NCBI RefSeq assembly: GCF_054482595.1
Contig: NZ_CM137008.1
Reading direction: 5' to 3' (one strand)
DNA: 64,000 nucleotides
Shown here: positions 3,769-19,549 of the stretch, piece after piece
Layout of the letters: every line of letters starts with the position of its first letter
How positions within the stretch are numbered: position 1 is the first letter of the stretch
Translations under genes and position numbers: made by a program
Notes under the pieces: generated by a model
Database searches by the model: none
What the model was told of the DNA's origin: nothing
What the model saw: the letters and a program-made list of their open reading frames with translations, nothing else

Positions 3769-5013
<1,245 letters not shown>

Positions 5014-16691: not shown

Positions 16692-17723
16692 ATGTCTGCA
16701 TTTACCCCGGCAAGTGAAGTCTTGCTGCGTCACAGTGATGATTTCGAACAAAGCCGTATTCTGTTTGCCGGAGACTTACAGGATGACCTGCCCGCGCGTT
16801 TAGATACCGCGACCAGCCGTGCTCATACCCAGCAATTCCATCACTGGCAGGTGTTAAGCCGCCAGATGGGTGATAACGCCCGTTTTAGTCTGGTCGCCAC
16901 GGCGGATGACGTCGCAGATTGCGATACGCTGATTTACTACTGGCCGAAGAACAAACCGGAAGCCCAGTTCCAGTTGATGAATTTACTTTCTCTGCTGCCG
17001 GTGGGCACGGATATTTTTGTCGTTGGCGAGAACCGCAGCGGCGTGCGCAGCGCAGAGCAGATACTGGCAGATTATGCGCCGTTGAATAAAGTCGACAGCG
17101 CCCGTCGCTGTGGCCTCTATTTTGGTCGTCTGGAAAAACAGCCGGTATTTGATGCCGATAAATTCTGGGGCGAATACAGCGTCGATGGCCTGACGGTCAA
17201 AACGCTGCCTGGCGTGTTTAGCCGCGACGGTCTGGATGTCGGTAGCCAGTTGCTGCTCTCGACGTTAACCCCGCACACGAAAGGTAAAGTGCTGGATGTC
17301 GGCTGTGGCGCGGGCGTGCTTTCGGTTGCCTTTGCGCGCCATTCGCCGAAAATTCGTCTCACTCTGTGCGATGTCTCTGCCCCGGCGGTAGAAGCCAGCC
17401 GCGCAACACTTGCGGCCAACGGTGTTGAAGGTGAAGTCTTTGCCAGCAACGTCTTTTCCGAGGTGAAAGGTCGTTTTGATATGATCATCTCCAACCCGCC
17501 GTTCCACGATGGGATGCAAACCAGCCTGGATGCGGCGCAAACGCTGATTCGCGGCGCGGTGCGTCATCTTAATAGCGGCGGCGAGCTGCGAATTGTAGCG
17601 AACGCCTTCCTGCCTTACCCGGACGTGCTGGATGAGACATTTGGCTTCCATGAAGTTATCGCGCAAACCGGGCGCTTCAAGGTGTATCGCGCCATTATGA
17701 CCCGCCAGGCGAAGAAAGGTTAA
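16692..17723 (+). CDS. rsmC: 16S rRNA (guanine1207-N2)-methyltransferase
   Basis: 343-aa ORF with SAM-binding motif [11 protein letters not shown]. Confidence 0.9.
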
Positions 17724-17732
17724 TTATCTCGC

Positions 17733-17900
<168 letters not shown>

Positions 17901-17943
17901 TAGTCTCTGATGGACATTTTTCCAGCAATTACACATCAGGCGA

Positions 17944-17971
17944 TAATTAACTATTGACGAAAAGCTGAAAA
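17944..17971 (+). promoter_or_regulatory. sigma70 promoter of the tRNA-Leu operon (stringent-type)
   Basis: TTGACG -35, 16-bp spacer, TAGAAT -10, then GC-rich discriminator GCGCCTCC; AT-rich upstream. Confidence 0.6.
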
Positions 17972-18022
17972 CCACTAGAATGCGCCTCCGTGGTAGCAAT
18001 TCTTTTTAAGAATTGATGGTAT

Positions 18023-18109
18023 GCGAAGGTGGCGGAATTGGTAGACGCGCTAGCTTCAGGTGTTAGTGTCCTTACGGACGTGGGGGTTCAAGTCCCCCCC
18101 CTCGCACCA
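18023..18109 (+). tRNA. leuQ: tRNA-Leu (CAG), copy 1
   Basis: 87-nt GCGAAGGTGGCGGAATTGGTAGACGCG...CTTCAGG...GGTTCAAGTCCCCCCCCTCGCACCA with encoded CCA and long variable arm. Confidence 0.95.
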
Positions 18110-18137
18110 AAAACCACGTTGATATTGCTCGCACTGG

Positions 18138-18224
18138 GCGAAGGTGGCGGAATTGGTAGACGCGCTAGCTTCAGGTGTTAGTGTTCTTACGGACGTGGGG
18201 GTTCAAGTCCCCCCCCTCGCACCA
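18138..18224 (+). tRNA. leuP: tRNA-Leu (CAG), copy 2 (one substitution in variable arm)
   Basis: Identical to copy 1 except GTGTTCTTAC for GTGTCCTTAC at 18185. Confidence 0.95.
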
Positions 18225-18258
18225 AACGAGGCGATATCAAAAAAAGTAAGATGACTGT

Positions 18259-18345
18259 GCGAAGGTGGCGGAATTGGTAGACGCGCTAGCTTCAGGTGTT
18301 AGTGTCCTTACGGACGTGGGGGTTCAAGTCCCCCCCCTCGCACCA
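18259..18345 (+). tRNA. leuV: tRNA-Leu (CAG), copy 3
   Basis: 87-nt copy identical to copy 1. Confidence 0.95.
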
Positions 18346-18760: not shown

Positions 18761-19549
18761 ATGGCCTATCGTTCCGCACCGCTCTATGAAGATGTCATCT
18801 GGCGAACACATCTCCAGCCGCAGGATGCTGGGCTTGCACAAGCCGTGCGGGCGACGATCGCAAAACATCGTGAACATTTGCTGGAGTTTATCCGCCTGGA
18901 TGAACCTGCCCCACTTAACGCCATGACGCTGGCGCAATGGTCATCACCGAATGTGCTAAGTTCTCTGCTGGCGGTCTATTCCGATCATATCTATCGCAAC
19001 CAACCAACGATGATCCGCGAGAACAAACCGCTGATCTCACTATGGGCACAATGGTATATCGGCCTGATGGTGCCACCATTAATGCTGGCGCTACTGACGC
19101 AGGAAAAAGCATTAGATGTGTCGCCGGAACATTTCCATGCTGAGTTTCACGAAACCGGACGCGTCGCCTGTTTCTGGGTCGATGTGTGTGAAGATAAAAA
19201 CGCAACACCACATTCGCCGCAGCAGCGAATGGAAACGTTAATCAGCCAGGCGCTGGTTCCGGTTGTGCAAGCACTAGAAGCGACCGGAGAGATCAACGGC
19301 AAACTTATCTGGAGTAATACCGGTTATTTGATCAACTGGTATCTCACTGAGATGAAGCAACTGCTCGGCGAGGCTACTGTTGAATCGCTGCGCCATGCCC
19401 TCTTTTTTGAGAAAACGCTCACGAACGGTGAAGATAATCCACTCTGGCGTACCGTGGTACTGCGCGACGGCCTGCTGGTGCGCCGCACTTGCTGCCAGCG
19501 TTATCGCTTACCGGATGTGCAGCAATGTGGCGATTGTACGCTGAAATGA
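18761..19549 (+). CDS. fhuF: ferric-siderophore reductase FhuF (2Fe-2S)
   Basis: 262-aa ORF ending CCQRYRLPDVQQCGDCTLK (C-C-x10-C-x2-C). Confidence 0.9.
   Translation: MAYRSAPLYEDVIWRTHLQPQDAGLAQAVRATIAKHREHLLEFIRLDEPAPLNAMTLAQWSSPNVLSSLLAVYSDHIYRNQPTMIRENKPLISLWAQWYIGLMVPPLMLALLTQEKALDVSPEHFHAEFHETGRVACFWVDVCEDKNATPHSPQQRMETLISQALVPVVQALEATGEINGKLIWSNTGYLINWYLTEMKQLLGEATVESLRHALFFEKTLTNGEDNPLWRTVVLRDGLLVRRTCCQRYRLPDVQQCGDCTLK

Follow-up and report, generated by a model that had tools for sequence, protein, structure and literature searches.

In Escherichia coli K-12, the leuQPV precursor is separated by RNase P, and an unstructured Rho-dependent terminator lies downstream of leuV (PMC2190699). 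LeuP is already known to differ from LeuQ, LeuV and LeuT by one variable-loop nucleotide (PMC12472396, published in 2025), and a tRNA-seq preprint lists leuP as a read class separate from that of leuQ, leuT and leuV. The window analyzed here, i.e., the whole 64-kb stretch of DNA, holds exactly three tRNA genes according to ARAGORN, all of them tRNA-Leu(CAG) on the + strand: leuQ (18023..18109), with C at base 48; leuP (18138..18224), the U48 variable-arm isodecoder; and leuV (18259..18345), again with C at base 48 and the last gene of the operon. Rfam also calls all three genes, and each copy scores 48.5 bits against the Rfam tRNA model (RF00005; gathering score, 29) over the full model (positions 1 to 71). 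A 28-nt spacer, AAAACCACGTTGATATTGCTCGCACTGG (18110..18137, +), separates leuQ from leuP, and a 34-nt spacer, AACGAGGCGATATCAAAAAAAGTAAGATGACTGT (18225..18258, +), separates leuP from leuV.

The surroundings of the array are those of the described operon. Gene order in the window, with open reading frames taken from the ORF listing, is rsmC (16692-17723, +), a REP-type repeat region, a promoter-like site, the three tRNA genes, yjjZ (from 18384, −), and fhuF (18761-19549, +); in the annotations of K-12 MG1655 and E. coli XH990, the leuQPV array likewise lies between rsmC and yjjZ/fhuF. The promoter-like site (TTGACG, 16 nt, TAGAAT; 17954..17981, +) matches the consensus at 10 of 12 positions, the best in the region, and is followed by a G+C-rich stretch, GCGCCTCC, ahead of the first tRNA. 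Because of its position, 42 nt upstream of leuQ, it is read as the putative promoter of the operon. A scan of the region for intrinsic terminator-like sites gave none on the + strand. A 551-nt query around the array has matches, annotated as three tRNA-Leu genes beside yjjZ, in 5,425 of 5,426 complete E. coli genomes, and the region is 100% identical in XH990. The middle gene is identical at 87 of 87 positions, the T included, to K-12 MG1655 leuP (b4369; NC_000913.3, 4606200-4606286), and the outer copies are 100% identical to K-12 leuQ and leuV. The flanks differ from those of K-12 by ∼2%, with an indel in the upstream REP-type repeat region. The locus is therefore the E. coli leuQ-leuP-leuV operon, and copy 2 is leuP, the orthologue of b4369.

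The repeat region between rsmC and the leuQ promoter contains a 61-nt direct repeat in two copies (17732-17792 and 17843-17903) that are 98% identical and 111 nt apart. The repeats overlap an Rfam match to naRNA4, a REP-derived nucleoid-associated RNA (17802-17884, −; 73 bits versus a gathering score of 59.5). The K-12 alignment breaks and partly duplicates in this region, and strains seem to vary in how many repeat units they have.

A preliminary description of the window, made from the sequence alone, held that the three 87-nt genes are identical apart from one variable-arm base, T in copy 2 where the others have C, and that this base would turn a G-C pair into G-U. The alignment and the predicted structure bear this out. 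Copies 1 and 3 are identical, 86 of the 87 alignment columns are invariant, and the one exception, column 48, has T in copy 2 against C in the other two. The variant base (U48 in linear count; 18185, +; GTGTTCTTAC versus GTGTCCTTAC) pairs with the G at 18192, within a hairpin at 18183..18194 (+) formed by G46-C57, U47-A56, U48·G55 and C49-G54 around a UUAC loop. The third pair of this 4-bp variable-arm stem, C48-G55 in copies 1 and 3, thus becomes a U48·G55 wobble in leuP. We take base 48 to be position e12, pairing with e22, on our own reading of the Sprinzl scheme.

Pairings were assigned by fitting the sequence to a class II cloverleaf, with the Rfam alignment as a guide; 12 of the 15 nt of the variable region are an insert in that alignment. 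Unconstrained minimum free energy folding of the full 87-nt tRNAs gave no cloverleaf from either variant, and energies were therefore taken for the imposed cloverleaf (predicted at −27.1 kcal/mol with U and −30.0 kcal/mol with C) and for the isolated hairpin (−2.3 versus −5.2 kcal/mol). The 4-bp stem and the UUAC loop are predicted to form in both variants. With its covariance score, its CAG anticodon loop (UUCAGGU, 7 nt; anticodon cag at position 35 by ARAGORN) and its long variable stem-loop, leuP has the features of a class II tRNA-Leu(CAG).

In all three genes, moreover, the fifth pair of the acceptor stem (tRNA bases 5/79) is an A·C mismatch, called noncanonical by cmscan (18027/18101, 18142/18216 and 18263/18337, +). 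The corresponding bases are G and T, a G·U pair, in the copies of Morganellaceae, and further combinations occur in other groups, which suggests that acceptor pair 5/79 is evolutionarily flexible.

For a difference of a single base, reproducibility rather than chance is the relevant test, and independent assemblies by the thousand have the same T. Exact matches to the 87-nt T variant were found in 4,536 of 5,429 E. coli records. The 893 records lacking an exact match overstate the loss of T, as some of those sampled keep it in a gene with a shortened C run or an extra substitution. A 71-nt query placed off the run of eight Cs matched exactly in 4,786 of the 5,429 records, leaving 643 without a match. 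At least 4,845 of 5,426 complete E. coli genomes (∼89%) carry a T-bearing copy, a count obtained with a query that seeds only on such copies (low-complexity filter, 28-nt word), so that its identity bands count leuP and not leuQ; about 125 extra T copies in E. coli were seen with the same query. T at 18185 is the normal, already known sequence of E. coli leuP.

The earlier suspicion of a sequencing or assembly error at 18185 had as its sole ground the C in the other two copies, and we now give it next to no probability. Comparison with a reference leuP, the check that had been proposed, was decisive: the K-12 gene carries T, as do 4,536 to 4,845 independent complete E. coli assemblies and the orthologues in other genera. 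The errors that were seen in this gene family are changes in the length of the 8-C run, not substitutions at 18185. K-12 identity and the population counts led us to reject sequencing error.

The 8-C run contributes to the T stem and to the 3′ strand of the acceptor stem and is equivalent to 18209-18216 in the leuP of the window. Three E. coli assemblies classed as complete (NZ_CP063983.1, NZ_CP100954.1 and NZ_CP062723.1; L124, L125 and L127, respectively) have five to seven Cs instead of eight, and genes with a shortened run are annotated as tRNA-Leu of 84 to 86 nt. These are probably homopolymer assembly errors, although some could be real, because the run is reported to be a strong indel hotspot in mismatch repair-deficient lines (PMC8510543). 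The searches also place tRNA-Leu(CAG) on plasmid records from E. coli assemblies, at eight or nine sites; H30 (NZ_CP170379.1; 294 kb) and H67 (NZ_CP128951.1; 655 kb), both small records with such copies, are putative plasmids.

The exact T-variant 43-mer was used to scan bacteria and archaea with one genome per species, a design that selects T-containing loci, and every Leu(CAG) gene, C or T, was then tabulated within the T-variant loci listed. At least 120 loci were found; among the matches listed, all belong to Enterobacterales or their unclassified relatives. The order C-T-C, read in the direction of transcription, occurs in at least 34 three-gene arrays from at least 13 labelled groups of Enterobacteriaceae. 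Among the matches listed, these groups are one unclassified metagenome genome and 12 named genera: Escherichia, Salmonella, Citrobacter, Klebsiella, Raoultella, Kosakonia, Phytobacter, Pseudocitrobacter, Pseudenterobacter, Intestinirhabdus, Enterobacter and Franconibacter. C-C-T arrays are present, again among the matches listed, in Pluralibacter, Trabulsiella, Lelliottia and relatives, and arrays of two genes, one of each type, are present in Xenorhabdus, Photorhabdus, Proteus and Morganella.

This distribution bears on a second account, that T is a recent mutation private to a strain or lineage which gene conversion has yet to erase. Homogenization of tandem identical genes is possible, and converted arrays are known, if rare, in E. 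coli, but T predominates in the species and is found in the corresponding array gene of Salmonella, Citrobacter, Klebsiella, Raoultella, Kosakonia and others. A recent private origin is thus refuted by the cross-species distribution, and we accord it hardly any likelihood. The preliminary description called the base an unusual polymorphism; its frequency in complete E. coli genomes, the published one-nucleotide difference (PMC12472396) and the C-T-C arrays across Enterobacteriaceae do not support that reading. Its judgement that the difference is of minor importance is one we share.

The spacers indicate how the three genes are related across genera. In a comparison of 15 C-T-C arrays (that of the window and 14 others), identity to the corresponding spacer of the other 14 arrays is 82 to 100% for spacer 1 and 65 to 97% for spacer 2, and the two spacers are unlike each other; the downstream flank in the C-T-C genera is merely 57 to 82% identical to that of E. 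coli. Position-specific spacer conservation across genera implies that the three gene positions are orthologous. The T of the middle gene is accordingly best read as an inherited paralogue difference and not as a polymorphism awaiting homogenization.

Further differences between C-type and T-type copies appear outside the C-T-C arrays. In Morganellaceae, 5G/79T is common to all copies and the C/T split is still present (among the matches listed), and in Proteus and the Lelliottia group the two types carry additional type-specific differences. As a separate observation, the C-type copies of five C-C-T arrays from an Enterobacter metagenome-assembled genome, Lelliottia, Huaxiibacter and relatives (L006, L034, L080, L083 and L116) have T49, which displaces the G·U wobble by one pair; these copies also have 5C, and some have 51A. 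In the T-type copy, 77T and 79T are found. Divergence between the isodecoder types has gone further in these arrays.

A minority of E. coli genomes depart from the standard pattern, and alternative arrays were sampled from these. The order C-T-T was found in Nissle 1917 (L135), and a query joining spacer 2 to a T gene matched exactly in 62 records, including ATCC 25922. T-T-C was read base by base in two examples (L134 and L136), C-C-C occurs with unchanged spacers (L128), and the contracted forms comprise an array of two C genes (L131) and loci with one gene (L122, L127 and L130). C is found at leuP in strain FDN-24; within the sampled genomes, C at leuP reads as a rare derived state. The O157:H7 strain Z1814 (L127) has a single C-type gene at the leuQPV locus. 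Five of the seven sampled T-less records (71-nt query) have fewer than four Leu(CAG) genes, and on this rough estimate from seven records array contraction looks to be the commonest route to leuP loss. In O157:H7 Sakai (L132; NC_002695.2, 4775438-4776908), leuT-proM is duplicated in the argX operon, in the order leuT1-tRNA-Pro-leuT2-proM2, and in Sakai, Z1814 and L122 the Leu(CAG) set appears rearranged rather than merely reduced.

The preliminary description regarded the locus as a concerted-evolution array, a premise that is weak. The C-C-C, T-T-C, C-T-T and contracted arrays are traces of gene conversion and unequal crossing-over, which act at leuQPV in E. coli but rarely. Homogenization of both copies and spacers within a genome was not found among the arrays compared: the spacers differ, each being orthologous across genera, and the C/T state tracks gene position from genus to genus. 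With spacers left unhomogenized and positions orthologous, purifying selection explains the similarity of the copies better than ongoing homogenization does, and leuQPV is most simply interpreted as three old paralogues that form a stable set and owe their likeness mainly to purifying selection.

Several lines of evidence favor an ordinary role for leuP in decoding. We propose that a single promoter drives leuQPV and that the polycistronic precursor would be cut into three mature tRNA-Leu(CAG) species reading CUG. Of these genes, leuP naturally supplies U at base 48 of the variable arm, the U·G55 wobble replacing C-G. The leucine identity elements of leuP are unchanged (A before the encoded CCA at linear 84, AA at 14-15, GG at 18-19 and U at 59), where the correspondence between linear and standard numbering is our own mapping and presumably holds. 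Identity for E. coli leucyl-tRNA synthetase (LeuRS) resides in the discriminator A73 and in the D/T hinge, which comprises the A15-U48 pair, G18G19 and A20a, and neither the sequence nor the fold of the long variable arm correlates with leucylation by this enzyme (reviewed in PMC9976931). Since recognition by this enzyme does not involve the variable arm, leuP is most likely an ordinary CUG decoder: folding, charging and decoding of the U form would match those of the C form, and its variable arm would be slightly weaker. Strains with T-T-C, with C-T-T (Nissle 1917 and ATCC 25922) and with C-C-C or single-gene arrays indicate that E. coli tolerates the alternatives. Purifying selection on a major tRNA would hold the three genes alike, with conversion or crossing-over intervening occasionally, and the U form itself may be close to neutral. 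Our literature search on the function of E. coli tRNA-Leu isodecoders and of the variable arm returned general reviews only. Taken together, we consider it likely that the middle gene is native leuP, an old inherited U48 isodecoder that is neither an error nor a recent mutation and that functions like the C form.

Part of the evidence for this reading comes from leuT, which lies elsewhere in the genome. Base T was found in leuT in at least about 40 argX-hisR-leuT-proM operons, including those of Klebsiella pneumoniae, Enterobacter cloacae, Citrobacter, Raoultella, Morganella, Xenorhabdus and Escherichia whittamii. E. coli leuT has C at base 48 (L123, L126 and L132), in contrast to T in E. whittamii (L071). 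In most other Enterobacterales sampled, leuT has T (among the matches listed). In E. coli, leuT seems to have changed type, from U to C, and leuQ or leuV may have been the donor in a conversion event.

A different explanation is that the C/U difference is itself kept by selection, i.e., that the two tRNA-Leu(CAG) isodecoders are not equivalent and that a cell benefits from both. A weaker arm in the U form could alter stability, precursor processing, modification, fragment production or sensitivity to tRNA-targeting nucleases, and the predicted difference in stability of 2.9 kcal/mol is not trivial. The recurrence of the same C-T-C positions in at least 34 arrays from at least 13 labelled groups, the retention of U in leuP and of C in leuQ and leuV across genera whose downstream flanks have diverged to 57 to 82% identity, and the wide occurrence of T in leuT outside E. 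coli (among the matches listed) all fit selection. So does the C/T split in Morganellaceae, which remains though 5G/79T is common to every copy, and the type-specific differences in Proteus and the Lelliottia group suggest long separate histories. Position-specific retention of C/T/C and the Morganellaceae split may hint at a constraint on the difference itself.

Set against this, T-T-C, C-T-T, C-C-C and leuP loss (in O157:H7 and others) are found in healthy, successful E. coli lineages, and leuT has C in E. coli despite having T in E. whittamii and in many other genera. Evolution is slow throughout the operon, in spacers as well as genes, so that a single unchanging site carries little weight; the survey favored T-containing loci; and E. 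coli LeuRS does not use the variable arm for identity (PMC9976931). Deep conservation of T was rejected as proof of selection, as the spacers are also conserved, the scan selected T and E. coli tolerates alternatives. Selective maintenance of the difference is, in our judgement, unlikely, and we are similarly doubtful of functional specialization of the isodecoders. A more specific version, in which the C48/U48 dimorphism predates the split of Enterobacteriaceae and Morganellaceae and has been held gene by gene through a distinct property of the U form (leuQ as C, leuP as U, leuV as C and leuT as U outside E. coli), would be slightly less probable again.

Since the base is correct, the window needs no resequencing, and the copy that looked odd is leuP as it stands in the K-12 reference. 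Single-base differences between tandem tRNA genes should be compared with the reference paralogues before they are flagged in genome scans. The leuQPV operon also offers a small natural test case for purifying selection versus gene conversion in bacterial tRNA arrays and for whether isodecoders one base apart are truly equivalent. If a selection-held dimorphism were true, bacterial isodecoders differing by one "silent" stem base would be functionally specialized.

The closest known counterpart of the gene is E. coli K-12 leuP, with the same sequence, the same middle position and the same neighbors (rsmC, yjjZ and fhuF); no differences were found in the gene itself. E. coli leuQ, leuV and leuT, the genes of the major tRNA-Leu1(CAG), share with leuP 86 of 87 bases, the length, the anticodon and the acceptor, D, anticodon and T arms, and differ from it in a variable-arm hairpin predicted to be ∼2.9 kcal/mol more stable. 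The leuT gene of other Enterobacterales shares the U48 variable arm of leuP, and in the Enterobacteriaceae listed the 87-nt tRNA is identical, but its operon and genomic location are different. Like tandem tRNA and rRNA families that evolve in concert, leuQPV consists of tandem, near-identical copies with rare conversion-like variants and contractions; unlike them, it has spacers that are not homogenized and a base-48 state that is kept for each position across genera.
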